A stretch of 37,391 nucleotides of DNA from Planctomycetaceae bacterium (GTDB lineage: Bacteria; Planctomycetota; Planctomycetia; Pirellulales; PNKZ01), in assembly GCA_016794255.1 (NCBI GenBank), contig JAEUIL010000258.1:1-37391 (forward strand). The letters run 5' to 3'. The translations under genes were made by a program, and so were the position numbers. This document shows positions 5,161-37,391 of this stretch, one piece after another (positions within the stretch are counted from its first letter, which is position 1; the number at the start of each line of letters is the position of its first letter). The notes under the pieces are model-generated. The model searched no databases and was not told the origin of the DNA. It saw nothing but the letters and a program-made list of their open reading frames with translations.

Positions 5161-5189
5161 GGTAACTCCTTCGGGCGGATCAGAGCATG

Positions 5190-5624: not shown

Positions 5625-5639
5625 GCAAACGATGTGCCA
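5625..5639 (-). promoter_or_regulatory. Sigma-54 (-24/-12) promoter for the receiver-Hpt operon
   Basis: The minus strand reads TGGCAC-ATCGT-TTGC, an exact match to TGGCAC-N5-TTGC. It ends 54 nt upstream of the ATG at 5570. A sigma-54 activator gene is divergently adjacent. Confidence 0.6.
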
Positions 5640-7578: not shown

Positions 7579-7600
7579 ACCGCGGTGGTGTCTGAGAGCA

Positions 7601-23445: not shown

Positions 23446-26400
23446 TTACTTGCGGAAGTGAAAATCCTCGAATGCCTGCGGCTGCAAGCCGATGTCGCGG
23501 CGAATCAGCTCGGGATGCTGCGCGTAGAACGACGGAAAATCGACCGGAAACGTCGCATCCATCATCCGATCGGGCGAGAAGCCGGACTTATCGCTCGGAT
23601 TGCCTTTGACCCCCGGATCGCCAGCGAATTGCGGATCGACGAAGATCGGGTCAATGACATAGGCACTCAATTGCTTCGCGGTTTGCGTTCCTTGCAGCAC
23701 ACGCTCTTCGAGCGGAATGCAATCGCGCAGATAGAAACAGTTGTTCGGCGTGCGGAAGGCATCGATATCGCCATCGCAACAGAGAATGCCCAGGTTCAGC
23801 CGCGCTTTCTTGTCGAGCATGTCGGTAAAGATGCAGTTGCGCAATGTGGACGATTGCTGCTTCGTGTTTCGCAATACGAACGCCATGATCATCGGCTCGG
23901 CGAAGACCGTGTTCTCGATCACGAGATTCGGACAGCGCCAGAAATACATACCGCCAAACTTGTACGTGTTGACGCAATTCTTGATCAGCAAATCCTCGAC
24001 AAAATACGCCGCCACGGGACTCGCCGAGTAACCGCCACGCCCTTCGGAGAAGCAGCGTGTGATCTGAATATCCTTGCCGTGATAGAGATGGAACTCGCCG
24101 CTGTTGAGCAAGCTCCACTTATCGTTCGGGAACAGATTGAAGGCCGCGAAGTACAGACCATCAAAGCGGAGATGACTCTTGCCGCCGGCGACAAAGCCGC
24201 TGTTCAAAGTCATGTCGTGGCCGTTGAGTTCCACACGCTCGCCGGGTAACGCTTGGAACGTGATCGGCTGACCCGGCGCGCCGGTGACTCGCAACCGAAT
24301 GCGTTCACGGTAAGTGCCTCCCGCGATCAAGACCGTGTCACCGGGTGCGACTTGCGTGGCGGCGTGACGAATGGTTCGCCACGCCTGTTGACGGTCGCGA
24401 CCCGAGCGCTGATCGTCGCCGTCATTCGCCACGTAAAACGTCCGTGGCTTCGGCGGCTCGCTCTGCGTGGTGAATGCGAGCGGCTCGTCGGACAAAGGTA
24501 CCGACGCGTAATGATCCGGCTTGGGGAGCATGTCGGCCGGGGTTTCGAGCTTGGTAATGCGAAAGTAATACTTCGTCGCGGGTTTGAGCCCGGTCAGGCT
24601 GTAAGAGCCGAAGCAATTGACGTTGAACGGCAGTGACTGTTTACACTCGGGCGTGGCGCCCCAACTCAACGAGCAAGTCGCCGGCGCGGTCGTGATCCAT
24701 TCCAAGTTGGCGGTCGTGTCGCTGACTGAGAACACGCTCGGCTTGACCGCCAACCGTAGGTCGGTCGCCGGCAGCTCATCGCGATACGGACCGAGCGGCT
24801 TGCCGAAGGGCCCGCCCCCGGCCAAGTGCGGACTCGCCGCGTCGAGCGCTCGCGATTGTGGCTCGTGGGTCGTTTGCAGCTTGGCGAGCGAGACGGGCTC
24901 GCCGTTCACCTGCCACGCTTGTTCTGCCCGCGCGTAGCCATTGTAGTTCGCGTACCGAATCTGTTCCAACTCTTGCAGTTGCACGGCGGGACCATTCGTC
25001 GCCAGAAACGCATTGCCGCGGAGATCGAGTTGAGTTGAATCATCGAGCTGCAACGACGCGCCAATCGTGTTGGCGAAATGACAGTGCGATACGGTCAGCC
25101 CGGCGACTCCGGTAGCCACGAGACGACCATTGCCCGAGAACGTCGCTTGATCAACAGTCAAATCACGCCCGGTGGCGAGTGTCACCGGCGCGGTGAACGT
25201 CAGTCGTTCAAGTCGCAGGTGATTGCACTCGACGAGTTTGAGCGCGCCATGGATCGTGACGGGGCCGACGCCTCGACCACGAATCGTGATCGGTGAGTCG
25301 GTTTTACCCACGGCGGTAATACTAACATCGCCCGCATACTCGCCCGGTTCGAGATACACGGTCGCCCCCGGCTGCAAATTCTTGACAGCTCGCGCGAGCG
25401 TTTTCCAAGCGTGGGACACCGACAGACCGTCGGCCGCATCGTCGCCATCGGGTCGCACATAGAAAATGTTCGGTTGATACGGAAACGCACCGCGATCGCT
25501 GGCCGAAGACGGATCGACGCTGCGGAACTGTGACGTGGCTTGCAGACGATAGTCGTGATTGTCGGGATCGGCGAACTCGGCCCGAGGGTCGAGCGTCGGC
25601 ACGTCGCTCAGCAAGATGTGCTGTTTCTCGGTGATCGCCTTGGACGCGGCCGAGCGGCCGATGGTACCGCGAATCACGTTCGCCACACTCCACAACCCCG
25701 GCGCGACGCACGACTCGGCGATGTGATGGTACTCGTAGCCGGTCTTGATCTTGAGGTCGGCCGTGTCGTTACCCCAAGCGTAGTTGCGGACGAGCATACT
25801 CTTATGCTTCGGGTCGTTGCCGCCGTCGTCGCCATGCGGCGGGGCACCGCCCGTGCCGTAGATGTTGATGCCGTACATGCCGTTGCGATACGCCACGCAA
25901 TCGCGAATCGTGTCGCGTCGCCCGTTGAAGACCGTGATCCCGCCCATGTCGCCATTGGCGAACGTCGACTTATTCGCCCACGAGACACAGCGTTCAATCA
26001 CGTTGTCGCCGCTCGCTTGCGAGATCGAATTGAAACCAATGCCCCAAGCGTTCAGGTAAGCCCGGCAATCGCGAATCACGCACTGCTTGCCATGCACGAC
26101 AAACAGGCCCCAGATGCCACCGGCGGTCTCTTCGCGATAGTGGATCAACTCCATGGCGCTAAAGCCGGTGAAAGCGAGCCCTTCGACCGTCACGCGCTTT
26201 GGCCGAATCAGGTGCAGGCCGGTGCGAGGAATGACCGACACGCTGTACGTGTGCGCGTCGGCCGGTCGCAGGTCCGTGGTCGAAATGTACAGCTTGCTTG
26301 TCTGAGCGTCGTGGAAGAACGTGCCGGGAATGAACTCGAGCTCGGCGGCGTTGGGCATCCGTTTGAGAATCTTGAGCGTATCGATCTCGTTGACCGCGGG

Positions 26401-26784
26401 AATCTGGCCGTCGAACGCGAAGTCGGCGACGTACACGAAGCGTTGTCCCGGCACGGGCCTAAACTGGGGCGCAGGCCGGTCGCCGCGCACGATCACCGTT
26501 CCCAATAACTCGGCGCGAATCTGGGTGTCGTGCTCCAGATCGCCAAGGTCGGCGCGCTTGATGCTCTCGAAATACTCACCGGGCGCGATGGTTAACGCAT
26601 CGCCCGGTTGCAGCGCGTCGACCCCCTTTTGGATCGTGGCCCAGGCCGTGGCGCGGGTGGTGCCTGTGTTGTTGTCCGAACCTTGCTTGGTGACGAAGTA
26701 CTGGGTCGCCGACACGACGGTGGTCACTGATAGGATTGCGATCCACACGGCGGCGACGAGCCAACGAGTCTGTCGAGTCAACAT
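23446..26784 (-). CDS. Large secreted right-handed parallel beta-helix (pectate-lyase-fold) protein with three DUF1565-like modules and an FN3-like domain
   Basis: Signal/anchor MLTRQTRWLVAAVWIAILSVTTVVSA. The cap motif occurs three times: YFVTKQGSDNNTG...AWATIQKGVDALQPGDALTIAPGEY, FYVRPDGDDAADG...AWKTLARAVKNLQPGATVYLEPGEY and FYVANDGDDQRSG...AWRTIRHAATQVAPGDTVLIAGGTY. FN3-like segment LEWITTAPATCSLSWG...LKPATKYYFRI. Confidence 0.8.
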   Translation of the reverse strand: MLTRQTRWLVAAVWIAILSVTTVVSATQYFVTKQGSDNNTGTTRATAWATIQKGVDALQPGDALTIAPGEYFESIKRADLGDLEHDTQIRAELLGTVIVRGDRPAPQFRPVPGQRFVYVADFAFDGQIPAVNEIDTLKILKRMPNAAELEFIPGTFFHDAQTSKLYISTTDLRPADAHTYSVSVIPRTGLHLIRPKRVTVEGLAFTGFSAMELIHYREETAGGIWGLFVVHGKQCVIRDCRAYLNAWGIGFNSISQASGDNVIERCVSWANKSTFANGDMGGITVFNGRRDTIRDCVAYRNGMYGINIYGTGGAPPHGDDGGNDPKHKSMLVRNYAWGNDTADLKIKTGYEYHHIAESCVAPGLWSVANVIRGTIGRSAASKAITEKQHILLSDVPTLDPRAEFADPDNHDYRLQATSQFRSVDPSSASDRGAFPYQPNIFYVRPDGDDAADGLSVSHAWKTLARAVKNLQPGATVYLEPGEYAGDVSITAVGKTDSPITIRGRGVGPVTIHGALKLVECNHLRLERLTFTAPVTLATGRDLTVDQATFSGNGRLVATGVAGLTVSHCHFANTIGASLQLDDSTQLDLRGNAFLATNGPAVQLQELEQIRYANYNGYARAEQAWQVNGEPVSLAKLQTTHEPQSRALDAASPHLAGGGPFGKPLGPYRDELPATDLRLAVKPSVFSVSDTTANLEWITTAPATCSLSWGATPECKQSLPFNVNCFGSYSLTGLKPATKYYFRITKLETPADMLPKPDHYASVPLSDEPLAFTTQSEPPKPRTFYVANDGDDQRSGRDRQQAWRTIRHAATQVAPGDTVLIAGGTYRERIRLRVTGAPGQPITFQALPGERVELNGHDMTLNSGFVAGGKSHLRFDGLYFAAFNLFPNDKWSLLNSGEFHLYHGKDIQITRCFSEGRGGYSASPVAAYFVEDLLIKNCVNTYKFGGMYFWRCPNLVIENTVFAEPMIMAFVLRNTKQQSSTLRNCIFTDMLDKKARLNLGILCCDGDIDAFRTPNNCFYLRDCIPLEERVLQGTQTAKQLSAYVIDPIFVDPQFAGDPGVKGNPSDKSGFSPDRMMDATFPVDFPSFYAQHPELIRRDIGLQPQAFEDFHFRK

Positions 26785-26838
26785 CGCATGCAGCTTCCAA
26801 TTAGATGGATGATCTAGTGTCCGTTGCCACCCAGCGAC

Positions 26839-28971
26839 CTAACTCAAACCATCGTGGGCTCCCCACGGTTCGAGCTGTTGCAGATTACGCGACTCGAGCG
26901 CTCGATAACAGTCGGGCAAGTCAAAATGGAGCAAAACACCCGGCAGCAGCGACGCATACGGCCAGCGATAGTCCTCGGTCTCGGCGATCGTGGCGAAGGA
27001 GTTGAGCGCGTGTTTGAAGGTGATCTGCCGCGGGGCACGATGCAGTAAGGCCGCGAACGTCGCCGCGAGCGCACCCCAACCACGAGCGACGAGATGAATC
27101 TCGCCGTGCCCCAGATCGGTCAACCAATCCAGGACACGCAGGACATCGAGCACCTTCTGACCCAGATACGGTCGGTCGAGCATCACGCCATTGGCGGCGT
27201 AGAAGTAGTCGGCATCGAAAGGCAATCGCAAACGTCCGCCGACCGCGCCGATGTTCGGCCGTGACTCGCCCGTGCCACGAACGTCGCACACGTAACAGGC
27301 CGAGTCGGGCTCGCGCTGGCGAATCTCGCCGATGAGCGGCTCGTGCCTGAGTTCCAGATCGGCCGACTGATGCGAGACGTACAAAATGGCTCGCCGTGGA
27401 CCGCGAGGCGGGGCCGACAACCAGAACTCGTCGTACAACCGAGTCACTGCGATCTCGATACCCGGCTCGGTTTGCACGGCGTAAGTGCAGTAGCCCGCGA
27501 TGCCCGGGTAGCGGTCGCGACCCGCGCTGCGCAGGATGCTGTAGTCGGGCACGCCGGTGAGTTCGGGCAGCTTGAGCACCGTGCGGGCGGCGTTCTGCAG
27601 CGCCTCGCCGGTAAGCGGAGCGCGTGATTGGGCCAAATGTTGACTCTTCTCGCGCGTGTAGGAAAAGATCGACCGCGAGTTCTCGAACGTCACTTGGCCT
27701 CGCGGAGTACACCACAACGCCGCATCCGGTGCGACGTCGGCGGGCACCTCGTCGGTCGAGGCCGTAATGCCTGTCGTGCGTTGAAACCAACGGTAGGTTG
27801 CCTCGCGGCTGGGTTGCGGATACGAGTGCGTATTCGGTCCGACGTGCAACTGCACATGGTCCGGCTTGCCGAGCAGCGCGTACAAATGTTGCAGGCGAGC
27901 GAACGCCTCGCGGGTACCGCGGATGTCGAAAAAGTCGCGTTCTTGTGCCTGAATGATGAGCGGCTTCGGTGCGAATGCGGCGAGAAAATCGTTGTGATCC
28001 AGACCGGCGGCCAACACGCGCGGCGCACATTGCTCGGTGTCTTGCGTCAATTCGTTCTCGACGTTGCGGCGGATGGTGGTGACCCAACCCGATGGCGCGG
28101 CCATCGTGAAGCGCGGTTCCAATCCGCACAAATAGGTCGTCTCCATGCCACCGCCCGAGTTGCCGGTTAAACCCACGTGACGCGGGTCGACCTCGGGACG
28201 CGACAAGAGATAGTCGAGAGTACGGATGCCGTCCCAGGCGAACCAGGCGCTCGACGACTCGCCCACGAGCACCTGCTGGTTCCCCGCTTGGGCATGTTCG
28301 AACGTGGCATAGTTGTACCGCGACTTGAGCGGCTCGCCGGGATCAACGTATTGATAACGCTCGCCTTGACCGGGCGGATCGCAAACCAACACGACGTAAC
28401 CTTGCCGGGCGAAACTTTGCGCGAGCGCCGTTTCATTCGCGGCACACTTGGCATTCTCTGAATGACCGCAGGCCACGAGCACCGCGGGCGCGGGCTGTTT
28501 CAAGTCGCGCGGCAGATAAACGTGCCCGGTCACAAGAAAACCCGGACGGCTCTCAAAAATCACTTTCTCGATACGATACGCCGCGCGCTCGACGACTCCG
28601 GTCACCCGAGCATTGAGCGGCGTCTTGGCAGGCTCCGGGCCGAAGCAATCGCGAATGCGTCGTTGCACCGACCGGACATACGCCTCAGCGTCAGCCTTGG
28701 TTTTCAACGTCGCTCGTTGCAGGTTGGCGTGCTGTTCGATCTCGCGGACCTGTCGCGCGAGCCAGTCTTGCATCATCCGCGGAAAACGGTTGAGCGGCTC
28801 GACATTTGCGCCGGTCGCAGGCTTTGTTGGTTCAGCAGCCTGAATACGTTCCACGTTTGCGACGTCAAGCCAATGCCCACTCGCACAACCGAGGCCGGCA
28901 AGCTGCAAGAAGCGACGACGATCGGCGAACGGTGACGAAGCCATGTACGACGGGACCTGCGCGAGTGTCAT
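26839..28971 (-). CDS. Tat-signal alpha/beta-hydrolase (acetyl-xylan-esterase / dienelactone-hydrolase-like), two-domain
   Basis: DRRRFLQLAGLG twin-arginine motif. GNSGGG nucleophile elbow (GxSxG) in the first domain. The second alpha/beta-like region has ARGWG at the elbow position. The start is ATG 28971 or ATG 28944. Confidence 0.72.
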   Translation of the reverse strand: MTLAQVPSYMASSPFADRRRFLQLAGLGCASGHWLDVANVERIQAAEPTKPATGANVEPLNRFPRMMQDWLARQVREIEQHANLQRATLKTKADAEAYVRSVQRRIRDCFGPEPAKTPLNARVTGVVERAAYRIEKVIFESRPGFLVTGHVYLPRDLKQPAPAVLVACGHSENAKCAANETALAQSFARQGYVVLVCDPPGQGERYQYVDPGEPLKSRYNYATFEHAQAGNQQVLVGESSSAWFAWDGIRTLDYLLSRPEVDPRHVGLTGNSGGGMETTYLCGLEPRFTMAAPSGWVTTIRRNVENELTQDTEQCAPRVLAAGLDHNDFLAAFAPKPLIIQAQERDFFDIRGTREAFARLQHLYALLGKPDHVQLHVGPNTHSYPQPSREATYRWFQRTTGITASTDEVPADVAPDAALWCTPRGQVTFENSRSIFSYTREKSQHLAQSRAPLTGEALQNAARTVLKLPELTGVPDYSILRSAGRDRYPGIAGYCTYAVQTEPGIEIAVTRLYDEFWLSAPPRGPRRAILYVSHQSADLELRHEPLIGEIRQREPDSACYVCDVRGTGESRPNIGAVGGRLRLPFDADYFYAANGVMLDRPYLGQKVLDVLRVLDWLTDLGHGEIHLVARGWGALAATFAALLHRAPRQITFKHALNSFATIAETEDYRWPYASLLPGVLLHFDLPDCYRALESRNLQQLEPWGAHDGLS

Positions 28972-29087: not shown

Positions 29088-31271
29088 CTACTTGGCCCAC
29101 CCGCGGAACAGCGCCTCCAGTTCGCGCGCGAAGCCGACGTTCTCGTACAGCACGCCGCACGAGGCGAGAATTTTTTCGCGCACCTCGGCACGCCAGGCGG
29201 GATCGTTGCCCAACCGCAGCGCAAGCCGGACGTAATCATCACGGTCGCGAGCTACGAGATCGAGCACGTTGATGAGCCGGTAGCAACCGTGGGTTACCTG
29301 GCTGCGTTGGAACGGGCCCGGCAATGTGACGACCGTCGCGCCGATCCCGAGCGCGTCGCAACTCGTCGTACCGCCCGAAAACCGCGGCGTGTCGAGCACG
29401 GCGTGAGCGTGGTCCATCACCTGCAAATACTCGGGACCGATCATCCGCGGCAAGAACGCGATCCGGTCGTACACGTCGGGCAACGCACGACGCAAACGTT
29501 GTTGCATCAGCGCGGTCCACGACGGATGCCGGCCGCAGAAGAAGTACAACTTGCCCAGAGGGTCTGCGCGGAGAATTTGGCCGAACAGTTCGTCGTCTTG
29601 CGGATGATACTTGAACAACGTCTGAGCGGTGACGTAGCGATGCGCGTCGGCGTCGAGGCCCAACTCGGCCAGCGTCTTGCGAACCTCGGGCAAACGCGGA
29701 CGGCGGTAGAACGACGGCAGCCGATCAAGCAACACCAGCCGTTCGCTGTAGTGCTCTTGAGCGTTGTCCGGTTCCATCAATCGGGATGACACGAAGTAGT
29801 CGATCGTGGGAACACCGGTGGTCACGGGATGTCCGCCAAGCACGCACTGCACCGGCGCCAACCGGGCAAATGCCAGATAGTTCGTCCACGGGTCCATACC
29901 CAAATCGGCGAACACCAGCACGTCGAGCTCCAACGCGGCAATCTGTTCGCGAGCGCGGGGCAAAGCGAAGTCGAGTTCCACGCAGCGGTGACCGGCCTGA
30001 GCGATCTCACGGGCCACGGCGTCGTCGGGCGTGGTGGGCCGAAGCACGATCAACTCGAATTCATCGTGCGACATCGCGCCGATCATCCCGGCATAGTGCT
30101 TGCCCACGGGGTGATCGAAAAAGTACTTCGACACAAAGCCGATGCGCGGCTTGCGATTCGACGGACGCGGCGCGGCGCCGGGTTGACAATGCGGCGCGAC
30201 AAACGCCAGCGACGGCGTGGCATGCAGCAGCAACTTGGCAAGCTGCTGCTGAAACGCCTTCTCGTTCAAGCCTTGATACGACAGATAAAACGGCGTGATG
30301 CCGATGTCTTGCACCGGATCGTCGACACGCAGCGGTCGGGCGAGCAACGCGGCAAAGTCGGCCTCCATCCGCTGCCGGGTTTCGACCATCTCGGCTTCAC
30401 TTTGCGACACTACATACGTTTGCAACGCAATGCGGATGCGCAGGCCATCGTTCGGTTTGATCTCGAGCGCGCGGCGATAAGCCTCCGCCGCCTCGTCGAC
30501 TTTGCCTTGCTGTGCGAGCACCGACGCCAGTCCGGTCGCCGCGTCGTACAGCGTGGGATCGATTCGCAAAGCCTGTTCGTAGGCGATCCGCGCGGGCTCG
30601 GCCTGGTTCTGCTCGAAACACAAGCTGGCCAGATTGTTGTGCGCGACTGCGTACTTGGGGTTAATAGCGATGGCCCGTTGATAACACGCCTGGGCCTCGC
30701 CGGGTCGACCGAGCTTTTGATGAATCCAACCCAAATTCGTGTGCGCACGCACATAGTTGGGATCGAGGGCGATCGCTTGCTCGAACAGACGCTGCGCCTC
30801 GGCCGTTTCGCCGCGCTCGAGGATCGCGGTGCCGAGGTTGTTGAGCGCTGGAGCGTAGTTCGGCCGCAGTCGCAAGCTCTCGCGCAAGTCGGCGATCGCC
30901 TCGGTCGTGCGTCCGAGCGCTTTGAAGACATTGCCGCGATTGTAATAGACATCGGCACTTTGCGGCGTGAGCTGCACGACCTCGTTATAACATGCGAGCG
31001 CGCGTTGATTGTCGTTCAGCCCGGTGTACGCTGCGCCGAGATTGCCGAGCATTTGCGACGTGCGTCCACCGAGTTGCATCGCGGCCTGGATCAATTCGAC
31101 CGCCCGAGCGGCGCGGCCCGATTGATACTCGACCACGCCCAGCAGATGGAGTGCGTCGATATTGCGAGGTTCTTGATTGAGCACCGCCTGATACAGCGGC
31201 CCGGCCTCGGTGAACCGCCCCGCGGTGTGATGCTGGAAAGCCTGTTGCAGCAGTTCGGCAGCGGTGGGCAT
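29088..31271 (-). CDS. TPR-repeat protein fused to a GT41 (O-GlcNAc-transferase / SPINDLY-like) glycosyltransferase domain
   Basis: About 300 aa of canonical TPRs (A..Y..AL...P....A...LG). A COG3914/GT41-like C-terminal half follows (IGFVSKYFFDHPVGKHYAGMI..., VTLPGPFQRSQVT...). ATG start. Confidence 0.85.
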   Translation of the reverse strand: MPTAAELLQQAFQHHTAGRFTEAGPLYQAVLNQEPRNIDALHLLGVVEYQSGRAARAVELIQAAMQLGGRTSQMLGNLGAAYTGLNDNQRALACYNEVVQLTPQSADVYYNRGNVFKALGRTTEAIADLRESLRLRPNYAPALNNLGTAILERGETAEAQRLFEQAIALDPNYVRAHTNLGWIHQKLGRPGEAQACYQRAIAINPKYAVAHNNLASLCFEQNQAEPARIAYEQALRIDPTLYDAATGLASVLAQQGKVDEAAEAYRRALEIKPNDGLRIRIALQTYVVSQSEAEMVETRQRMEADFAALLARPLRVDDPVQDIGITPFYLSYQGLNEKAFQQQLAKLLLHATPSLAFVAPHCQPGAAPRPSNRKPRIGFVSKYFFDHPVGKHYAGMIGAMSHDEFELIVLRPTTPDDAVAREIAQAGHRCVELDFALPRAREQIAALELDVLVFADLGMDPWTNYLAFARLAPVQCVLGGHPVTTGVPTIDYFVSSRLMEPDNAQEHYSERLVLLDRLPSFYRRPRLPEVRKTLAELGLDADAHRYVTAQTLFKYHPQDDELFGQILRADPLGKLYFFCGRHPSWTALMQQRLRRALPDVYDRIAFLPRMIGPEYLQVMDHAHAVLDTPRFSGGTTSCDALGIGATVVTLPGPFQRSQVTHGCYRLINVLDLVARDRDDYVRLALRLGNDPAWRAEVREKILASCGVLYENVGFARELEALFRGWAK

Positions 31272-31364
31272 CGGGGTAATGGCTGAGTGTGAGGTGAGGA
31301 GCCGGGCAACAATATTGAGGACTCGCTTCGGTTCGCTGCCGGAACTGCGCGGACTTGTTCCGCC

Positions 31365-32588
31365 CTACGGCATGGCTGCGGCGCGCTCTTTGATTCGGGC
31401 ACGAACGCGGGCTGGATCCAAAAGACCTAGACGCATGATCGCGCAAATCGCGTCGATGTCGCTCGGGCCAATCGCCGTGCCGGTCGGCAACACGATCACT
31501 TTCGCGGCCACGCGCTCGGTCTCGCTCAGCATCAAATGGGCGTTCGGAAAGTACGAGCGGTACGGCTCCATGCGATGCGCACCGGGCCAAAAGTATCGCC
31601 GAGCCCGAATGTTTTCGGCAAACATCAGCTCGATCAACTCGTCGCGGGACAAGCCGGCTGCTGGTTCGTCGACCTCGATGACCACGTACTGATAGTTGGG
31701 CGTCTCGGCCGAGTCGTACGCGATCGGCGTGATGCCGCGGACCTGGCGAAGCTGCTCGCAATAATGCAGATAATTACGACGGTTGACCGCCACGAAGTCG
31801 CCACAGCTATCGAGTGACGTGAGCCCCATCGCGGCCGAGAGTTCGCACATCTTGCCATTCGTACCGATGTGATTCACTTTGTCGAAATGGACGAAGCCGA
31901 AGTTACGCATCAGCCGCATCTTTTCGGCCAGCGCGTCGTCGTTTGTGACCACCGCGCCACCTTCGCCCGAGTTGACGAACTTCGTGGCATGAAAGCTCAG
32001 CACCTCGGCCCGACCAAAGCCGCCGACCCGCCGACCTTGATGCGTGCAGCCAAACGCATGAGCCGCGTCATACAACACGGCCAAGTTGCGTTTGGCGGCG
32101 ATGCTCTCGATCGCATCGGTATCGCAGCCGCGACCCCAGAGATGCACGCCGATGATGCCCGTGGTGCTGGGCGTGATGAGCGCTTCGATCTTGCTCGGGT
32201 CGATGTTGTGCGTCGCGGGATCCATGTCGCAAAAGACCGGCGTGATCTCTTGCCATTGCAGGGCATGGGCCGTGGCGACGAACGTATAGCTGGGCAAAAT
32301 CACCTCGCCCGACAGGTCAAGGGCGCGAATCGCGATCTCGAGCGCGATCGTGCCGTTGCACATCGCCAGACAGTGTTTCACGCCACACGCCTCGGCCACG
32401 CGGCGTTCAAACTCGCGTACCAGCGGACCATCGTTCGACAGCCAGCGATTGGCGAGCATCGTGTTGATACGCTCGTGCAGTCGCTGCGGATCGCCGACAT
32501 TCGGCCGACCGACATGCAGCAGATCGTCGAACGCCGGCGGAGCGCCGAACAGGGCGAGATCGTCGAACGCTAATTTAACTCGTGTCAT
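31365..32588 (-). CDS. DegT/DnrJ/EryC1/StrS-family PLP-dependent sugar aminotransferase
   Basis: GPLVREFERRVAEACGVKHCLAMCNGTIALEIAIRAL and the PLP-lysine context LSFHATKFVNSGEGG. The ATG at 32588 overlaps the upstream stop as ATGA. The ORF-track TTG at 32600 is less likely. Confidence 0.9.
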   Translation of the reverse strand: MTRVKLAFDDLALFGAPPAFDDLLHVGRPNVGDPQRLHERINTMLANRWLSNDGPLVREFERRVAEACGVKHCLAMCNGTIALEIAIRALDLSGEVILPSYTFVATAHALQWQEITPVFCDMDPATHNIDPSKIEALITPSTTGIIGVHLWGRGCDTDAIESIAAKRNLAVLYDAAHAFGCTHQGRRVGGFGRAEVLSFHATKFVNSGEGGAVVTNDDALAEKMRLMRNFGFVHFDKVNHIGTNGKMCELSAAMGLTSLDSCGDFVAVNRRNYLHYCEQLRQVRGITPIAYDSAETPNYQYVVIEVDEPAAGLSRDELIELMFAENIRARRYFWPGAHRMEPYRSYFPNAHLMLSETERVAAKVIVLPTGTAIGPSDIDAICAIMRLGLLDPARVRARIKERAAAMP

Positions 32589-33442
32589 ACGTGATCCCAA
32601 AGCACGACTTTCACAATCCCATCAACGCATCGCACGAGCAGTTTATTCTCGTACTCCATCATCACCTGTCCGGGCAAGCCATTACTGAACCGCGCGAGCA
32701 CATGCGAATTCGTTATCGGTTGGGCCTCAAAAATGCGAATCACTCGATCGAGCAAAGTTGCCTTTGTACCCAGGCTGCGCACGCCGAACGCCCGGATGCG
32801 GTTGAGTATCGGGACAGCCTGCATTTTGCAAAAGTTGACCTCGGCATCTCCGGGTTTGCGACTGTAATAGGACCCTGCGCCCGTCTGGGTGATTCCTCGA
32901 TAGCGAAAGTTCGAATCGACTAGTAGTTTCATTCCCTCGCTGAAGACAGCTCCCTCGAAATCAAACAGCAATCGATACAGCAGGCCAAGATCGACATCAG
33001 GCGTTAATTCAAAACGATCCTGATAAACAATCGGTCCCGTATCAATGCCTTGATCCATGAAATGCATGGTAGCGCCGGCGAAAGACTCGTCAAACAGCAG
33101 CGCGCCATTGATGGGATGGATCCCTTTCAACCACGGCAGATAGGAAGGGTGTACGTTGAGAAAAACGCGACGTTGGTCGGCGAGTTGATCGATCGGGAGC
33201 TTGAGCGGACAACCGTTTGAAATCAGTACATCAAATGAACAGGCATGGAGTTCCGCGAAAATGGCTTTCTTGTCGGCCACTTTGAAGGGAGTGAAAGGAG
33301 TGCCAGACGCCGCCAAGTGTTTAGCCAAAAAGCTGTCCTCGACCGCAAACACCCGTTCGATCTGCAGTTCACTAAACTGGGCGCATTGCTTCCAGACAGC
33401 GGTGCGATTGCCGATGAATGCGACGCGAAAGGTTTGTGACAT
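32585..33442 (-). CDS. Formyltransferase-fold enzyme, probable sugar N-formyltransferase
   Basis: FLNVHPSYLPWLKGIHPI (catalytic Asn/His as in Fmt/PurN/ArnA) and MDQGIDTGPIV (catalytic Asp context). Its stop overlaps the start of the adjacent DegT aminotransferase gene (ATGA). Confidence 0.85.
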   Translation of the reverse strand: MSQTFRVAFIGNRTAVWKQCAQFSELQIERVFAVEDSFLAKHLAASGTPFTPFKVADKKAIFAELHACSFDVLISNGCPLKLPIDQLADQRRVFLNVHPSYLPWLKGIHPINGALLFDESFAGATMHFMDQGIDTGPIVYQDRFELTPDVDLGLLYRLLFDFEGAVFSEGMKLLVDSNFRYRGITQTGAGSYYSRKPGDAEVNFCKMQAVPILNRIRAFGVRSLGTKATLLDRVIRIFEAQPITNSHVLARFSNGLPGQVMMEYENKLLVRCVDGIVKVVLWDHV

Positions 33443-33501
33443 GGAAGCGGTCGACTAGCGATGCGAAACGAACATTATTACGCGAAGGTGGCAGCGGGGT
33501 T

Positions 33502-34410
33502 TCAAGCCAGTTCGCCGTCACGATACAAGGGGAAATACGACGAGGACAAGTTCTTGTCTCGACAGAGTTCTTGATATCTTCGCGGATCGAGGATCTTGCC
33601 GGCGAAAAACACGCGTCGCGTACAGTTTGACCAGCCACGTTTGAAGCGCGACAAGCCATCGTCACTGGCCGGGTCGAGTCCGGCGCTGGCTCCCAAATCG
33701 AGCCAGCGTACGCGTTGAAAAAAATAGTCTAATGAGTAGTGGTACAAAGCGTAGGACGCGTTTGCCTTATAACCCTCTGGCGTAAACGCTGCGAGATGAT
33801 TGTAAGCATAGTCACCTTGAACATACCACAATTGCGCTCCTACGGTTCCGGACGCATCGTAGGCGCGAAAGGCAACGATCCCCGGAACGGCCAACTGCTG
33901 AGCAAATGCAGTCGGCGAGAACCGCTTAATACCCCGGAGATTGTGACGTTGAGCCAAATGGGCATACAGTACGTCCCATTCGTCGAGAAACGCCGCGGGC
34001 TGTTCAATGACCTCGACTTGCACGGTTCGCTGGGCGACACGCGTGTAGTATCGATGATGACTGGACACAAACTCGGCCGGCGATTGGCTCAAGTCTACGG
34101 TGAAGTGCGTCTTGAATGGCTTGCAACGGTCGGAAAAGCAACTCGTCAATTCCGATTCGTTCAAATCCGCGAAAGGATCAGTTACCAGTGCCACACTTAC
34201 GAGCGGTTGAGTTGCTTCAGTGAGTATTTGCAAGTCATCTGCCAATTGACTCCAGTCCTGGCAGCAAAAGCGGGGATACAAACCCATCGCATCGCGCTCG
34301 CCGCCTTGAATGCCGCGCACAAGTAACCAACCGCCAGACCGCGGCAATTCGAGCGGCACGCCCCATTCACCCAGCGACTCGGCATATTCACGACTCAAGT
34401 AGCCGGTCAT
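33502..34410 (-). CDS. FemAB/CelD-like (Acetyltransf_6, GNAT-fold) acyl- or aminoacyl-transferase
   Basis: The C-terminal pattern YNHLAAFTPEGYKANASYALYHYSLDYF...WLDLGASAG...DGLSRFKRGW resembles the FemAB/BioF2-like acetyltransferase family. The ATG at 34410 overlaps the upstream stop as ATGA. The ORF-track extension to 34617 overlaps the upstream gene and is rejected. Confidence 0.62.
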   Translation of the reverse strand: MTGYLSREYAESLGEWGVPLELPRSGGWLLVRGIQGGERDAMGLYPRFCCQDWSQLADDLQILTEATQPLVSVALVTDPFADLNESELTSCFSDRCKPFKTHFTVDLSQSPAEFVSSHHRYYTRVAQRTVQVEVIEQPAAFLDEWDVLYAHLAQRHNLRGIKRFSPTAFAQQLAVPGIVAFRAYDASGTVGAQLWYVQGDYAYNHLAAFTPEGYKANASYALYHYSLDYFFQRVRWLDLGASAGLDPASDDGLSRFKRGWSNCTRRVFFAGKILDPRRYQELCRDKNLSSSYFPLYRDGELA

Positions 34411-35429
34411 CGTGCCACCTCGCGCTCGACAATCGTCGCCAGACGCTGCATCACCGTGGCATCGTAACGCTGATCGCACGGCAGGGTCATGATGCGGCTC
34501 GCGAGTCGATGTGCCGCAGTGCACTCGGCTGGAACGGAACTCCCAAGCGGCCAATGCACCGGCGGGAAAATTTCCTCGGCAAACAACGCCTGCCGGACGG
34601 CATCGCGATGGTCGCACACCAAGGGAAACCCGATCGGCACGACGTCCGCGGGTAACTCAGGATAGAGGGCCCAGTCGGCGAGTCGTTCGAGCAGGACGCG
34701 ATAATTCTCCCGGCGACGAGCCGCGATGCCGGGCCAATCGATCTCGCTCCAGAGCATGTCGCGCGACGCCTCGCTGATCGTACACGGAACTCGCGGCTGT
34801 TCCGCCTCGGCCCTTTGAAAAAGCGTGAACCAGCGACGCTCGCCACCGACGCGATCGAACTCGGCACGTTCGTCGGCCGCTTGTGTGGCGAGTGCGAGCC
34901 AGTCGCCGGGTGGTTCGGGCAGCGTGATGTGTGGCAACGATGCACCGCGACGCGCACCGAGCAACCCGCCGTCGATCACGCCGAGAAACTTGCGAAAGCT
35001 GTAGACGACATAGTCCGCCTCGTGACCCACAAACGGACTGAGTAGCGCCTGCGCGGCATCCTCGACGATCACAGCACCGCGCGAACGCAAGTCACGCATT
35101 AACTCGCGATCGGCCGGAAAACCAAACTCGTCCAGCACCACGACCAATTCGCCCGCGTTCACTCCACCTGACCAATCGACTTCACCGCGATCATAGAAGC
35201 GAATCGCGGACGCATGGGTCGCCAAGGCACCGATCACCAGGGGACAGTTGAACGCCGGCAGCCAAATCCGCTTCGGTTGCAAATGCTCTGCCAGCACCAT
35301 GAATGCCGAGCGGGCGTTGACCAACCACAGATCACCGGCGCGCACAAACGGAGGCGTGCGACGAACCGTGGCCAGTGCCACGGGCTCTCGCCCGAACATG
35401 CCGCCGACGATTCGCGGTGGTTGGATCAA
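34407..35429 (-). CDS. DegT/WecE-like PLP-dependent enzyme (second aminotransferase-fold gene)
   Basis: IVGGMFG N-terminal motif, NARSAFMVLAEHL...IWLPAFNCPLVIGAL, VEDAAQAL, and the PLP-lysine context YSFRKFLGVIDGG. TTG start with an AAGGTAG SD 6 nt upstream. Confidence 0.7.
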   Translation of the reverse strand: MIQPPRIVGGMFGREPVALATVRRTPPFVRAGDLWLVNARSAFMVLAEHLQPKRIWLPAFNCPLVIGALATHASAIRFYDRGEVDWSGGVNAGELVVVLDEFGFPADRELMRDLRSRGAVIVEDAAQALLSPFVGHEADYVVYSFRKFLGVIDGGLLGARRGASLPHITLPEPPGDWLALATQAADERAEFDRVGGERRWFTLFQRAEAEQPRVPCTISEASRDMLWSEIDWPGIAARRRENYRVLLERLADWALYPELPADVVPIGFPLVCDHRDAVRQALFAEEIFPPVHWPLGSSVPAECTAAHRLASRIMTLPCDQRYDATVMQRLATIVEREVAR

Positions 35430-35530
35430 GCCGACTACCTTACATAAAGAGCGAAATATCGTGGCGCGAGTGCATGTCGTGAAATCGGTTTCACCCGCCA
35501 GTGCTTGGCAAACGAATCAACTCGTCAGGC

Positions 35531-36268
35531 CTAACGCTTGCAAACTAAATATATGCTGGCCGTGAGTTGCGGGTATTCATCGCCCAACTGGTAGCAGGCT
35601 TCCATGAACTCATCCGAGATCAGGTTCCCACCCACGAGGGCGTCGAACTGAAAATTCGCTAGTGCCTTAAAAAAGACACCTCCCGATCGCACGATGGTCA
35701 AACCGGCGGCGCGGGCATCTCGTTGAAACGTGTCCATGACATAGATTCGCCGATGACCACCACGATGATCGGCGGGTGCAAAGTCAGTCAGTTCTTTCAA
35801 GAGTCCCATCTTGACGGCGATTTGCCGCGACACGGCGTTGCCGTTCGGAACGATTGCGTGAATGCGCCCTTGAGGAGATAGCAGATCGCTAGCCTTCCGC
35901 AACACCTCAACGGGATCGATCAAGTGCTCGAGCACGTGCATCAGAAAAATATTGTCGTACTTGCGATCGGACGTGAAGTCCTCGAACAGCGCTTGATGAT
36001 AGACTGCCTTGTCACCCACGCGTTGCCGTGTGATCTCAAGAAACTGCGCGGCCGCGTCCACCACGGTCAGGTCTGAGTAGCGTTCGGCCAACAGACTCGT
36101 GAACTCGCCGTACATGCACCCCATTTCCAAGGCGCTACCCGGAACGAGAAACGGTTCGAGCGAACGCAACATCCAATGCCGCATCAGACGATCAAAATTC
36201 GAGTTGTCATATCCGGCGGCAAGTTGATTCAGATTCTGAAACTCTGCAGCCAATTCCTGACGGGACAT
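35531..36268 (-). CDS. Class I SAM-dependent methyltransferase
   Basis: Motif I ALEMGCMYGEF, acidic loop LTVVDAA, motif post-II DNIFLMHVLEHL, LLSPQGRIHAIVPN. ATG start with a GGAG SD. Confidence 0.85.
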   Translation of the reverse strand: MSRQELAAEFQNLNQLAAGYDNSNFDRLMRHWMLRSLEPFLVPGSALEMGCMYGEFTSLLAERYSDLTVVDAAAQFLEITRQRVGDKAVYHQALFEDFTSDRKYDNIFLMHVLEHLIDPVEVLRKASDLLSPQGRIHAIVPNGNAVSRQIAVKMGLLKELTDFAPADHRGGHRRIYVMDTFQRDARAAGLTIVRSGGVFFKALANFQFDALVGGNLISDEFMEACYQLGDEYPQLTASIYLVCKR

Positions 36269-36319
36269 GAGAGAAGCTCCGAAACTGGTTGAAATGCAAG
36301 GGAACGCGTCAATCGCTCG

Positions 36320-37099
36320 CTAATCTTGATCTGCGCGGTACGTCCGCTGCTCAGCGGGTTGGTACCATTCGTCTAGATTGGCTGGAACTCGAGCGTTGTA
36401 GCCCAATAGTTGCCGCGTGTCGTCGTCGAGGCCTTGTTCGTATTCGCTACTCAAATAGCGAGGATAATCCAATTGCTGTTTGAAGAAGGGACGCGTGTAA
36501 GTCAGCGTTAATCCCCGACGTTTGACGCCCACCCGATTCTCGCCCGCGGCGTGCCAAATCGCCGAGTCGAACACGCCCAACGAACCGCGCCGTCCCACGA
36601 GGCGCGCCGAGTACTTCTCAAACCATTCGTCGCTGGGCCGATCAACGACGTGATGAGAACTGGACAGCAAATGGGTCGCTCCGTTGTCCAGCGTAAAGTC
36701 GTCGATTAACACCATCACGGTTACCATCATCGGGTGTCCCGGAAAACAGACACGCACGTCCCGATGGGGACGTTTGTAGTAAGTCGTATCCGAGGTTTGG
36801 TTCGCAATTCCGCCATACGAATTGAGGATGATCTTTCCACCCAGGTAATGGGAAATCTCTGCATTCAAATAGTTTCGCCGCAACAGTTCGTCGAGACTGT
36901 CGTTGAAGCCAAAGACATGATGGGCTGAACCTTCCGAGCGCTCCAACAATCCACGCCGCGCACGATAGTCGTGTGATCGTGCGATCGCCTTCTCGAGGTC
37001 CTCGCCTAGGCGATCCAGAAACGCGGGCTCAATCATATTCTCGATGATGAGCCAGCCGCGAGTTCGCATTAGATAATCAAACTCAAGCGCATCAAGCAT
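36320..37099 (-). CDS. Phytanoyl-CoA dioxygenase (PhyH) family Fe(II)/2-oxoglutarate oxygenase
   Basis: RPHRDV (HxD facial-triad part), distal His in AIWHAAGEN, Arg in KRRGLTLTY. Typical PhyH N-terminus GWLIIENMIEPAFLDRL. Confidence 0.85.
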   Translation of the reverse strand: MLDALEFDYLMRTRGWLIIENMIEPAFLDRLGEDLEKAIARSHDYRARRGLLERSEGSAHHVFGFNDSLDELLRRNYLNAEISHYLGGKIILNSYGGIANQTSDTTYYKRPHRDVRVCFPGHPMMVTVMVLIDDFTLDNGATHLLSSSHHVVDRPSDEWFEKYSARLVGRRGSLGVFDSAIWHAAGENRVGVKRRGLTLTYTRPFFKQQLDYPRYLSSEYEQGLDDDTRQLLGYNARVPANLDEWYQPAEQRTYRADQD

Positions 37100-37127
37100 G
37101 TGATGAACCTCAAATGGTGCTCATGAA

Positions 37128-37391
37128 TTAAGCGGCGCTAGTTTCGGCAACCTTCGCCGTCAAGAATTGCTCCAACTCGCGAATGAATCCCTGTTGTTCG
37201 TAGACCAGATGCTGGCCAGCCAAAATCGCCTCGCTGATCCGCTTGCGGAACTCGGGCTCGGTTCCTAGGCGAACGGCGATCCGCACGTAGTCGTCGAGGT
37301 CGCGGGCCACGCAATCGGTCACGCCGAGCTTTTCGTACAACGCTTTGGTCACTCGGCCGCGCATGAACTCGCCGGGCAACGTGACAATCGG
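37128..37391 (-). CDS. C-terminal end of a second GT41/SPINDLY-like transferase (3' part only; the gene continues beyond the window)
   Basis: LPGEFMRGRVTKALYEKLGVTDCVARDLDDYVRIAVRLGTEPEFRKRISEAILAG...YEQQGFIRELE aligns ungapped with the C-terminus of 29088..31271. 37 of the first 70 positions are identical by hand count. The frame is open to the window end. Confidence 0.7.
   Translation of the reverse strand, partial: PIVTLPGEFMRGRVTKALYEKLGVTDCVARDLDDYVRIAVRLGTEPEFRKRISEAILAGQHLVYEQQGFIRELEQFLTAKVAETSAA

Follow-up and report, generated by a model that had tools for sequence, protein, structure and literature searches.

What kind of sugar is built by a compact set of tailoring genes lying between two soluble glycosyltransferases, and onto which acceptor is it placed? 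The question is raised by a 37,391-nucleotide stretch of DNA from a Planctomycetaceae bacterium (hereafter the window), which is the entire contig. Its minus strand carries, from 29088 to 37391, an eight-gene island whose intergenic distances range from -4 to 101 nt (28, 51, 101, -4, 59, -4 and 93 nt in the direction of transcription). With moderate confidence, we read this island as a cytoplasmic protein O-glycosylation system, most likely for flagellin, in a Planctomycetaceae-like bacterium, and its product is probably an unusual N-formylated, amino-acid-decorated amino sugar that is put on protein. In order of transcription, the genes are:

37128..37391, minus strand, partial GT41, the C-terminal 87 aa of an upstream TPR-GT41 paralogue truncated at the edge of the contig (PF13844, 2.6e-9)
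36320..37099, minus strand, PhyH-family Fe(II)/2-oxoglutarate dioxygenase, 259 aa (PF05721, 7.4e-13)
35531..36268, minus strand, class I SAM-dependent methyltransferase, 245 aa (Methyltransf_23, 2e-18; NodS-like, 4e-10)
34407..35429, minus strand, predicted divergent DegT-fold PLP enzyme, 340 aa, partner of the FemX-like gene (AF2 model, homologues)
33502..34410, minus strand, predicted FemX-like double-GNAT transferase, 302 aa (PF13480, 23.3 bits; AF2 model)
32585..33442, minus strand, N-formyltransferase, 285 aa, in a variable acyl slot (Formyl_trans_N+C)
31365..32588, minus strand, DesI-like NDP-4-keto-6-deoxyhexose 4-aminotransferase (PF01041, 5.5e-106)
29088..31271, minus strand, TPR + GT41 glycosyltransferase, 727 aa (TPR families and PF13844, 1.4e-24)

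Island organization and conservation

All eight consecutive genes were found where the original prediction had placed them, and the families it had named (GT41, PhyH, methyltransferase, DegT, FemAB and formyltransferase) are supported by profile or structure matches. Its statement that the window encodes no Wzx, Wzy, initiating phosphoglycosyltransferase, nucleotidyltransferase or 4,6-dehydratase agrees with our scan of every large ORF. GC content is low (0.52-0.545) in the PhyH, methyltransferase, FemX-like and formyltransferase genes, the last being the island minimum at 0.519, and 0.60-0.63 in the DegT and GT41 genes; the DegT-like gene (0.632) is unlike the low-GC genes.

The same bracketed gene order recurs in three other loci (L011, L014 and L086), thus the arrangement is not due to chance, and the idea of a conserved, self-contained island holds for these genomes. 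A near relative (L086), whose downstream GT41 protein (P0241) is 92% identical to the one described here, harbors a complete island between two full-length TPR-GT41 genes (ECF sigma, GT41-PhyH-MT-DegT-like-FemAB-GNAT-DegT-GT41, GDPD, DUF1501), L011 has LpxA, FabG and FabF, then the same island, then PSP1 and Acs, and three further loci (L001, L085 and L087) possess a version with a single GT41. The genes flanking the L086 island are unrelated and include neither Wzx nor Wzy nor an initiating transferase, and lipid-carrier machinery is absent from the flanks of both complete islands (L086 and L011), i.e., the surroundings of an ordinary O-antigen/EPS locus, which the original prediction had named as evidence that would speak against it, were not found in these relatives. 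At the DNA level (blastn against L086) the DegT and downstream GT41 genes are 86-89% identical, the methyltransferase, DegT-like and FemX-like genes 73-74%, and PhyH has no match. Close relatives exchange the central cassette, as would be expected if diversifying selection acts on a surface glycan.

The TPR-GT41 transferases

The GT41 assignment is solid: the catalytic domain of the downstream enzyme matches human OGT (2.6e-26) and also T. terrenum OGT, XcOGT, SPINDLY and HMW1C/NGT, with H387 aligned to the His of the OGT motif 'GNHPTS' and K554 to the Lys of 'LYKIDP'. The two C-termini, for which an earlier hand count had given 37/70 identical residues, are indeed paralogues (39/73 identical, E 3e-24). 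Two conserved lineages, 'up' and 'down', can be told apart, as the partial upstream copy scores higher against the upstream than against the downstream copies of L002, L011 and L014, and its orthologues are full-length TPR+GT41 proteins of 704 aa (L086) and 695 aa (L011). Inspection of the GT41 N-termini revealed no apparent signal peptide or membrane sequence. Other TPR-GT41 paralogues are abundant in planctomycetes in unrelated contexts, and we know of no GT41 enzyme that transfers a viosamine-type sugar, both of which count against our reading.

Predicted assembly of the sugar

By homology, the DesI-like aminotransferase would convert dTDP-4-keto-6-deoxy-D-glucose to dTDP-4-amino-4,6-dideoxyglucose (viosamine type), the keto sugar presumably being supplied by RmlA and RmlB encoded elsewhere; no gene for either precursor enzyme was seen, which counts against our reading. 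The aminotransferase scores 524 bits against the TIGR04427 DesI model, under the cutoff of 650, matches the DesI structure 2po3 at 1.7e-120 and carries K207 within an SFHATK motif, and it probably starts at the ATG at 32588, which gives a 4-nt overlap with the stop of the formyltransferase gene. An amine would then be capped by the enzyme of the variable slot, here the N-formyltransferase using N10-formyl-THF, as both homology and the variation of the slot suggest: in relatives it is filled by a GNAT acetyltransferase (e.g., the GNAT of L086) or by an epimerase with PHP and ATP-grasp ligase genes. The Asn/His/Asp motifs described as intact are present (N96/H98/D134), the best PDB matches (ca. 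1e-12) are sugar N-formyltransferases (5uin/5uij, QdtF 4xd1, WlaRD and PseJ), and Fmt scores lower (9e-9) than these sugar-type enzymes. With the formyltransferase of a Chloroflexia flagellin island (L030) the protein shares 44% identity.

A second decoration, most likely an aminoacyl group passed from aminoacyl-tRNA to a sugar amine, would be added by the translationally coupled DegT-like and FemX-like enzymes, judging from their folds; that the sugar is doubly N-substituted is a guess. The DegT-like protein itself lacks a Pfam or NCBIfam match, its homologues, spread over many phyla, give weak PF01041 matches, and D124 and K147 are invariant. A Foldseek comparison of its AF2 model (pLDDT 92.8) gives matches to sugar aminotransferases, among them Pcryo_0616, WbpE, WecE and DesV, at probability 1.0 and TM 0.6-0.68, which points to a divergent DegT-fold enzyme. 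The gene described as FemAB/CelD-like spans 33502-34410 rather than the 371-aa ORF and encodes 302 aa, as in the recorded product, with an ATG overlapping the DegT-like stop by 4 nt. Its PF13480 score of 23.3 bits lies above the cutoff of 22 bits, and more than 2000 relatives at ca. 50% identity occur across phyla. The best match of the AF2 model (pLDDT 93.5) is W. viridescens FemX (TM 0.70), followed by MprF/A-PGS/L-PGS and by the aminoacyl-tRNA-dependent Sba18/Sbb17 bound to streptothrisamine. Based on these models, the FemX-like transferase is probably dependent on aminoacyl-tRNA, and the pair may aminoacylate amino sugars from this donor. We consider this widespread, uncharacterised pair the most interesting part of the island.

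The methyltransferase and the PhyH enzyme might subsequently methylate and hydroxylate the sugar or its side chain. The former matches a solved, uncharacterised structure (2p7h/2p7i, 1.9e-62). PhyH has the HxD motif (H112/D114), with H183 as the candidate distal His by position, and weak PDB matches (e.g., TlxJ, 7e-8); in the planctomycete loci examined it is present where the upstream GT41 is also present, and it is also found in a polysaccharide locus (L006).

Acceptor of the glycan

The finished nucleotide sugar would be moved onto protein by the two soluble TPR-GT41 paralogues, acting in sequence or on different acceptors, as suggested by the acceptors of GT41 enzymes and by flagellin-linked relatives, and the TPR domains would choose the acceptor, most likely flagellin before export. 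Neither flagellin nor any other flagellar gene adjoins the island, either within the window or in the planctomycete loci that were examined, which counts against flagellin; the acceptor is thus inferred from other phyla, where the sugar genes are again coupled to TPR-GT41: a Caulobacteraceae MAG (L074) has the same seven families in a different order with a TPR-GT41 (PF13844, 1e-59), and GT41 catalytic-domain matches lie beside the module in L038, L063, L067 and L075. In the last three (two Terriglobia MAGs and one gammaproteobacterial MAG) the TPR-GT41 genes directly adjoin flagellin, which lends support to the proposed protein acceptor. In L063 and L067 flagellin is followed by TPR-GT41 and next by the FemX-like and DegT-like genes, while L075 has two TPR-GT41 genes beside the flagellin gene and, ca. 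4 kb beyond them, methyltransferases and a FemX-like/DegT-like/DegT set. In two Chloroflexi loci (L030 and L033), genes for flagellin, FliD and a GT2 fusion protein precede the DegT, DegT-like, FemX-like, formyltransferase and methyltransferase genes, and a Pseudomonas flagellin island (L084) encodes a distant DegT-like homologue and an 1180-aa GT2 protein.

A protein acceptor other than flagellin (such as a pilin, adhesin or other protein of the cell surface, or a regulator in the cytoplasm, with a different one for each GT41) seems rather unlikely. Besides the missing flagellar link in planctomycetes, it draws on the conservation of both GT41 lineages, on a cyanobacterial GT41 homologue needed for pilin glycosylation (bioRxiv 10.1101/2021.07.06.449578) and on the HMW1C/NGT enzymes of GT41, which modify adhesins (PMC3012730). 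However, flagellins are the only acceptor genes adjoining GT41 plus cassette in any phylum examined, no pilin or adhesin gene recurs beside the island, and the beta-helix protein and hydrolase genes downstream in the window are not conserved there in relatives.

Ordinary tailoring of LPS O-antigen, capsule or EPS, with the GT41-like enzymes adding the sugar to a glycan or lipid-linked intermediate and the export and initiation genes encoded elsewhere, we regard as improbable. The sugar cassette is not confined to protein glycosylation: classical polysaccharide loci harbor its core together with Glycos_transf_4, Polysacc_synt, GT2, GT4 and sulfotransferase genes (L003) or with an ABC-2 transporter (L004), in L006 the PhyH-MT-DegT-like-FemAB-DegT set is accompanied by a GT2 gene and by an initiating transferase of the Bac_transf type, and across the 84 loci of the pair the most frequent neighbours are GT2 genes, at 26 loci, and genes of ABC transporters, at 17 and 12. 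Given that it also occurs in ordinary polysaccharide loci, the cassette is a portable sugar-tailoring module, and since it serves lipid-linked pathways elsewhere, it is by itself silent on the acceptor. What argues against polysaccharide tailoring is the absence of polysaccharide machinery from the flanks (ca. 2-6 kb per side) of L011, L074 and L086, the TPR-GT41 genes next to flagellin and the GT41 N-termini devoid of apparent membrane or signal sequences. To our knowledge, characterised GT41 enzymes all act on proteins, which likewise counts against it.

It is highly improbable that the DegT-like, FemX-like, methyltransferase and PhyH enzymes make or modify an aminoacylated metabolite or peptide, with incidental GT41/DegT adjacency, for although FemX-fold enzymes occur in natural-product pathways (VlmA, DhpH-C, PacB and Orf11; PMC12945691) and the DegT-like protein is too divergent for the Pfam threshold, the pair lies nearly always among sugar genes (DegT at 50/84 loci, GT2, GT4, Wzx/Wzm/Wzt), the DegT-like fold specifically matches nucleotide-sugar aminotransferases, and the GT41 + DegT association is kept across several phyla and gene orders.

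Comparison with known systems

Flagellin glycosylation remains our preferred reading, and among the closest counterparts are the enterobacterial flagellin islands, whose GT41 (SPINDLY/COG3914) glycosyltransferases are described from comparative genomics only (De Maayer and Cowan 2016, PMC4875605). As these catalogue GT41 with DegT, formyl-, acetyl- and methyltransferases, to call the system undescribed, as the original prediction tentatively did, goes too far. Both have one to three soluble GT41 enzymes clustered with such genes and no lipid-carrier machinery, and the formyltransferase/acetyltransferase swap between close enterobacterial strains parallels that between the window and L086. In contrast, the enterobacterial islands lie between flagellar genes, most of their GT41 enzymes carry a fused methyltransferase domain, and the description of them names neither a FemAB-like nor a PhyH gene (PMC4875605), whereas the present island is unlinked to flagellar genes and has N-terminal TPR arrays and the DegT-like/FemX-like/PhyH set.

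In architecture, the island transferases resemble FlmG of Caulobacter and Brevundimonas, a soluble cytoplasmic two-domain enzyme whose N-terminal TPR domain binds flagellin and whose C-terminal GT-B domain sets the donor and transfers the sugar (PMC7591256; bioRxiv 10.1101/2022.03.25.485807). FlmG (596 aa) uses CMP-activated pseudaminic/legionaminic acid, whereas the donor predicted here is a dTDP-6-deoxy amino sugar. This predicted sugar resembles that of the P. syringae and P. aeruginosa PAK islands, in which N-acylated, methylated 4-amino-4,6-dideoxyglucose is made on dTDP and put on flagellin glycans (P. syringae flagellin bears modified viosamine; vioA, vioB, vioM, vioR, vioS, acp and vioT island; PMC3927599). 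Those islands likewise rely on an aminotransferase of the DegT type, on a methyltransferase and on an N-acyl module, but there the acyl group is 3-hydroxybutanoyl, made via FAS-like enzymes, instead of formyl plus probable aminoacyl, and the P. syringae transferase is the 1173-aa VioT (with a GT2-type counterpart in L084) instead of a GT41.

With eukaryotic and bacterial OGT, SPINDLY and HMW1C/NGT (CAZy GT41) the island enzymes share a homologous catalytic domain (E 2.6e-26 to 4e-10) with aligned catalytic His and Lys, together with an N-terminal TPR array, while the His in the nucleotide-binding motif 'NGHTT' of OGT is Gly here ('SGGTT'). Owing to the dedicated amino-sugar genes of the island, UDP-GlcNAc, GDP-fucose and UDP-glucose are all unlikely donors. 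Finally, the predicted double-GNAT fold of the FemX-like protein superposes on FemX and on Sba18/Sbb17, the latter with an amino-sugar compound, and Orf11 aminoacylates an amino-sugar amine with Gly-tRNA (PMC12945691). Sequence identity to FemX/Orf11-type enzymes is only ca. 15-17%, and whereas those belong to cell-wall or antibiotic loci, the FemX-like genes described here occur in glycan loci, always paired with a DegT-like gene.

Gene content of the island

Eight tightly packed minus-strand genes are present at 29088-37391, as the original prediction had it, and nearly all of the family assignments that it proposed for them were upheld by profile searches.

Genes of the island in transcription order, with the evidence for each assignment
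37128-37391 (-): partial GT41 C-terminus; PF13844 2.6e-9, 36.3 bits (cutoff 25)
36320-37099 (-): PhyH dioxygenase; 7.4e-13, HxD motif H112/D114, candidate distal H183
35531-36268 (-): class I methyltransferase; Methyltransf_23 2e-18, weak NodS similarity
34407-35429 (-): DegT-like PLP enzyme, 340 aa; fold and invariant residues
33502-34410 (-): FemX-like double-GNAT protein, 302 aa; fold, PF13480 23.3 bits against a cutoff of 22 (marginal)
32585-33442 (-): formyltransferase; Formyl_trans_N and C, N96/H98/D134, PF00551 68 bits, PF02911 32 bits
31365-32588 (-): DegT aminotransferase; PF01041 5.5e-106, DesI (PDB 2po3) 1.7e-120
29088-31271 (-): TPR array and GT41 domain, 727 aa; PF13844 86.7 bits (cutoff 25)

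The intergenic gaps are, in transcription order, 28, 51, 101, -4, 59, -4 and 93 nt. The FemX-like gene starts at an ATG at 34410, a start backed by homologues, which overlaps the stop codon of the DegT-like gene as ATGA (the mechanical 371-aa ORF at 33502-34617 runs with ca. 69 N-terminal codons over the DegT-like gene). The formyltransferase and DegT genes are joined by the same 4-nt overlap, and both overlaps suggest translational coupling. The methyltransferase matches PDB 2p7h/2p7i over its full length (1.9e-62); these entries, termed "hypothetical protein" and functionally unannotated, provide a ready structural template for the family. The classical DegT scores 524 bits against the DesI model TIGR04427, under the equivalog cutoff of 650.

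The remainder of the window codes for two-component regulators, hydrolases, peptidases and oxidoreductases. Profile searches of the window recovered no Wzx, Wzy or initiating phosphoglycosyltransferase, in line with what had been read from the sequence, and no ABC transporter of such a locus; neither RmlA nor RmlB is encoded in it. A promoter and terminator scan returned fewer sites than shuffled sequence. Signalling genes are densely packed at positions 6-10855: a pair of hybrid histidine kinases bearing receiver domains at 6-3134 and 3138-4760, a response regulator of the sigma-54-dependent kind at 6085-7578 and, on the minus strand at 7601-10855, a hybrid kinase of 1084 aa with multiple PAS/GAF domains. 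Two large genes at 23446-28971 follow the island immediately downstream. One encodes a beta-helix protein of 1112 aa (Beta_helix, Chondroitinase B-like, DUF1565) that apparently carries a signal peptide, the other a double alpha/beta-hydrolase of 710 aa (AXE1/glucuronoyl-esterase-like) whose N-terminus is TAT-like. The secreted beta-helix protein and the hydrolase were rejected as acceptors, as neither is kept beside the island in relatives.

Complete islands in planctomycete relatives

The window takes up its contig from end to end (37,391 bp). A near relative (L086, a 1.82-Mb contig of NCBI GCA_036704275.1), whose downstream GT41 is 92% identical to that of the window, carries the complete island in the order TPR-GT41 (704 aa)-PhyH-methyltransferase-DegT-like-FemX-like-GNAT-DegT-TPR-GT41 (727 aa), flanked by an ECF sigma factor on one side and GDPD and DUF1501 genes on the other. 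The neighbourhood singled out in the original prediction is thus conserved, its bracketed order recurring in L086 and in two Planctomycetaceae MAGs (L011 and L014), and the O-antigen/EPS genes that the same prediction held would speak against it are absent around the island in L086 and L011 (the L011 flanks are LpxA/FabG/FabF and PSP1/Acs). No flippase or polymerase, ABC transporter or initiating transferase occurs in the flanks of these two complete islands, and the island is self-contained. Three other loci (L001, L085 and L087) carry a shorter island that lacks both PhyH and the upstream GT41; in the planctomycete loci compared, these two genes co-occur.

The TPR-GT41 glycosyltransferases

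The downstream gene is, by its sequence, a clear member of GT41 (PF13844). Its catalytic domain matches human OGT (2.6e-26) and also 5djs, Thermobaculum OGT, XcOGT, SPINDLY and HMW1C/NGT in the PDB. In the HMMER alignment to 6q4m, H387 ("FFDHP") is aligned with the His of OGT "GNHPTS" and K554 ("LFKYHP") with the Lys of OGT "LYKIDP", which we take to be the catalytic H498 and the phosphate-binding K842. To our knowledge, the GT41 enzymes of known function act on proteins. The two GT41 C-termini of the window, proposed from the start to be paralogous, share 39 of 73 residues, and since complete islands of relatives carry a full-length TPR-GT41 at the upstream position, the partial gene is almost certainly a full-length TPR-GT41 cut by the contig end. 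The paralogues may work in sequence or on different acceptors. As some islands combine the same sugar genes with a single GT41, one GT41 is enough for transfer. In P. syringae, Fgt1, Fgt2 and VioT act in sequence (PMC3927599).

A further 728-aa TPR-GT41 (P0250; locus positions 9610-12187 in L088-L090), 46% identical to that of the window, comes from the metagenome that also yielded L001. It immediately follows a single-domain response regulator and has no sugar genes around it. Evidently, Planctomycetes also carry other GT41 paralogues in regulatory contexts.

The DegT-like/FemX-like pair

The more original lead is the DegT-like/FemX-like pair rather than the island as a whole. Profile searches with the DegT-like protein gave no Pfam or NCBIfam match, PF01041 included, and its homologues, which form a large family, match PF01041 weakly or faintly. 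The sole match in a PDB sequence search, NO66, is spurious. Its AlphaFold2 model (pLDDT 92.8) has as its best 38 Foldseek PDB matches DegT-type sugar and aminoglycoside aminotransferases, all at probability 1.0, with ca. 15% identity and TM 0.6-0.68 to the sugar aminotransferases. D124 and K147 ("S-x-R-K-F") are invariant in 25 DegT-like sequences. The protein is thus predicted to adopt the fold-type I sugar-aminotransferase fold, with K147 as the putative PLP lysine and D124 as the putative pyridine-binding Asp. The FemX-like model (pLDDT 93.5) likewise predicts a double-GNAT fold like that of FemX; its closest match is Weissella FemX (TM 0.70, E 3.6e-12). Next come MprF, with its aminoacyl-phosphatidylglycerol synthase domains, and the aminoacyl-tRNA-dependent Sba18/Sbb17 in complex with an amino-sugar substrate. 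Among species-representative genomes, 256 relatives of the DegT-like gene were recovered from many phyla; the FemX-like protein has > 2000 relatives.

The DegT-like enzyme could itself make the amine that the FemX-like protein acylates; several full-length loci (L013, L018 and L031) have the pair but no classical DegT within 10 kb of it. Another possible role of the DegT-like enzyme is to remodel the aminoacyl side chain. A WbqC-like protein (PF08889) replaces the FemX-like one beside the DegT-like gene in some loci, e.g., in L034 and in a Pseudomonas locus (L084, 3025-14460); it was found in 10 of 84 loci and may be an alternative partner for an analogous acylation step.

Slot variation and mosaicism of the core

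The slot between the FemX-like and DegT genes differs among islands. It is filled by the formyltransferase in the window, by an Acetyltransf_3 GNAT in five relatives (L086, L011, L001, L085 and L087) and by an epimerase/RmlD-like gene, PHP and a PylC-like ATP-grasp gene in a contig of JGI 3300059473, which reads [partial 592 aa]-methyltransferase-PhyH-methyltransferase-DegT-like-FemX-like-epimerase/RmlD-like-PHP-PylC-like ATP-grasp-DegT-[partial 643 aa]. Two more loci (L002 and L074) also have an Acetyltransf_3 GNAT beside the cassette. The remaining genes differ widely in their DNA identity to the near relative:

DNA identity of island genes to L086 and their GC content in the window
DegT: 89%; GC 0.609
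Downstream GT41: 86%; GC 0.625
Upstream GT41 C-terminus: 81%; GC 0.598
DegT-like and FemX-like (one alignment): 74%; GC 0.632 and 0.545
Methyltransferase: 73%; GC 0.541
PhyH: no blastn match; GC 0.544
Formyltransferase: no counterpart (GNAT instead); GC 0.519

The GC content of the PhyH, methyltransferase, FemX-like and formyltransferase genes (0.52-0.545) lies below that of their neighbours, the DegT-like gene (0.632) being the exception. This uneven identity and GC suggests recent cassette exchange, a pattern as in surface-glycan loci. In enterobacterial flagellin glycosylation islands, Fmt and acetyltransferase genes are swapped between strains (PMC4875605).

By its core, its triad and its closest similarity, the formyltransferase is predicted to be a nucleotide-sugar N-formyltransferase of the WlaRD/QdtF/VioF type, its best PDB matches (ca. 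1e-12) being 5uin/5uij, QdtF (4xd1) and WlaRD (4lxq), with PseJ (6ci2) also among the best. Action on aminoacyl-tRNA like Met-tRNA formyltransferase (Fmt, 9e-9) is less likely, as the sugar N-formyltransferases match better. What the formyl/acetyl/ATP-grasp slot caps would be either the amine of the sugar or, once an amino acid has been added, the alpha-amine of the latter. Such a swappable slot in a mosaic core would amount to glycan diversification between near relatives, like the antigenic variation of O-antigens and flagellin glycans, and the modular parts are possibly useful for glycoengineering of cytoplasmic O-glycosylation.

The cassette in other loci

Searching the window proteins against six-frame ORFs of 84 loci placed the DegT-like and FemX-like genes side by side in most of them, with a classical DegT near in 50. 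The commonest other neighbours are GT2 (26/84), ABC transporter ATPase (17), permease and Acetyltransf_3 GNAT (12 each), a TPR cluster that is mostly TPR-GT41 (11), WbqC (10), GT4 (9) and Wzx (7). All neighbour counts are approximate, as greedy ORF picking gave spurious antisense ORFs in high-GC loci. This spectrum of neighbours designates the cassette as a portable nucleotide-sugar tailoring module. Flippase, ABC-transporter or initiating-transferase contexts of the cassette are seen only in other phyla. In one locus (L006) the PhyH-methyltransferase-DegT-like-FemX-like-DegT set has a GT2 gene and an initiating transferase (Bac_transf) for neighbours, and we therefore take PhyH and the methyltransferase to act on the sugar rather than on an acceptor protein; given this polysaccharide context, a Skp1-like scheme, in which PhyH hydroxylates the acceptor and so provides the upstream GT41 with its attachment site, was rejected as the main reading. 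Another locus (L003, ENA contig_904, 1-21044) has the DegT-like/FemX-like/DegT trio among polysaccharide genes, which include a Wzx-type flippase, GT2, GT4, Glycos_transf_4 and sulfotransferases (at least six genes), and may encode a sulfated glycan with the same modified sugar. A Caulobacteraceae MAG (L074), where GT41 is the transferase beside the cassette, combines the same seven families in another order, with unrelated genes on either side.

The acceptor

Flagellin genes lie within 10 kb of the cassette in six of the 84 loci, a proximity that we judge, rather than compute, to be far above chance. Two Terriglobia loci (L063 and L067) read flagellin, TPR-GT41 (PF13844 about 1e-42), FemX-like, DegT-like, and in a gammaproteobacterium (L075) flagellin adjoins two TPR-GT41 genes, with methyltransferases and the FemX-like/DegT-like/DegT genes ca. 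4 kb on. Two Chloroflexi loci (L030 and L033) read flagellin(s), FliD, GT1/GT2 fusion, DegT, DegT-like, FemX-like, formyltransferase (44% identical to that of the window), methyltransferase. The flagellin island of Pseudomonas (L084) holds a distant DegT-like gene, WbqC, ATP-grasp and a GT2 protein that, at 1180 aa, is as large as VioT/OrfN. Loci in which the cassette neighbours a GT41 transferase thus point to a protein, specifically flagellin, and by analogy we infer a protein acceptor for the island, most likely flagellin. The TPR domain of FlmG binds flagellin (PMC7591256).

The flagellar location is seen only in these six relatives from other phyla, and no flagellin or flagellar gene lies beside the island in the window or in any planctomycete locus compared, so that pilins or other surface proteins are also possible acceptors; in a cyanobacterium, glycosylation of pilin requires a GT41 homologue (bioRxiv 10.1101/2021.07.06.449578). 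Weighing both, we consider it fairly probable that this is a protein glycosylation island with flagellin as the most likely acceptor.

A proposed mechanism

From homology, the DesI-like DegT would transaminate dTDP-4-keto-6-deoxyglucose to a viosamine-type sugar, the formyltransferase would N-formylate an amine and a GT41 enzyme would transfer the product from its nucleotide sugar. The FemX-like protein, judging from its fold and the precedent of Orf11, which transfers an aminoacyl group to the streptothrisamine amine in BD-12 biosynthesis (PMC12945691), may move an aminoacyl group from aminoacyl-tRNA to the sugar amine. More tentatively, and with some doubt, we propose that the DegT-like/FemX-like pair marks a widespread uncharacterised pathway that places an amino acid from aminoacyl-tRNA on the amine of a nucleotide sugar, followed by formyl or acetyl capping, methylation and hydroxylation, and that in Planctomycetaceae two TPR-GT41 enzymes place this sugar on proteins. 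If so, it would explain how amino sugars that bear amino acids, as reported from O-antigens and flagellin glycans of bacteria, can be made, the donor chemistry of GT41 would reach beyond GlcNAc, glucose and fucose, and a two-gene module may tie the tRNA pool to glycan decoration. We know of no GT41 (OGT-family) enzyme described with a dedicated, heavily tailored 6-deoxy amino sugar donor, which the island would then provide. Among the papers that we searched, there was no study of protein glycosylation by GT41/OGT-type enzymes in Planctomycetes, and the island would also give a genetic handle on protein glycosylation in this group. The predicted aminoacyl-tRNA-dependent sugar decoration and non-canonical GT41 donor would both be notable if borne out.

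Comparison with known systems

With its soluble glycosyltransferases and nucleotide-sugar tailoring, and without flippase, polymerase or initiating transferase, the island would work like a flagellin glycosylation island but is not classed as one, because it lacks a defining feature, location among flagellar genes. In function, it resembles FlmG with Pse/Leg and the viosamine islands of Pseudomonas; FlmG of C. crescentus is likened to the TPR-GT41 enzymes by architecture, TPR and GT-B being common to both (PMC7591256). The closest described systems are the GT41-bearing flagellin glycosylation islands that comparative genomics, so far the only source on them, has revealed in Enterobacteriaceae: 14 of the 42 island types contain GT41, of which there are eleven types, alongside DegT, Fmt and methyl- and acetyltransferases (PMC4875605). 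Compared with these, the present island belongs to another phylum and is unlinked to flagellar genes. The original claim of an undescribed system thus holds in part: the framework of GT41 and flagellin islands was already known (PMC4875605), whereas the island is set apart by its paired TPR-GT41 paralogues and by the DegT-like/FemX-like/PhyH set, the latter not being mentioned in that study.
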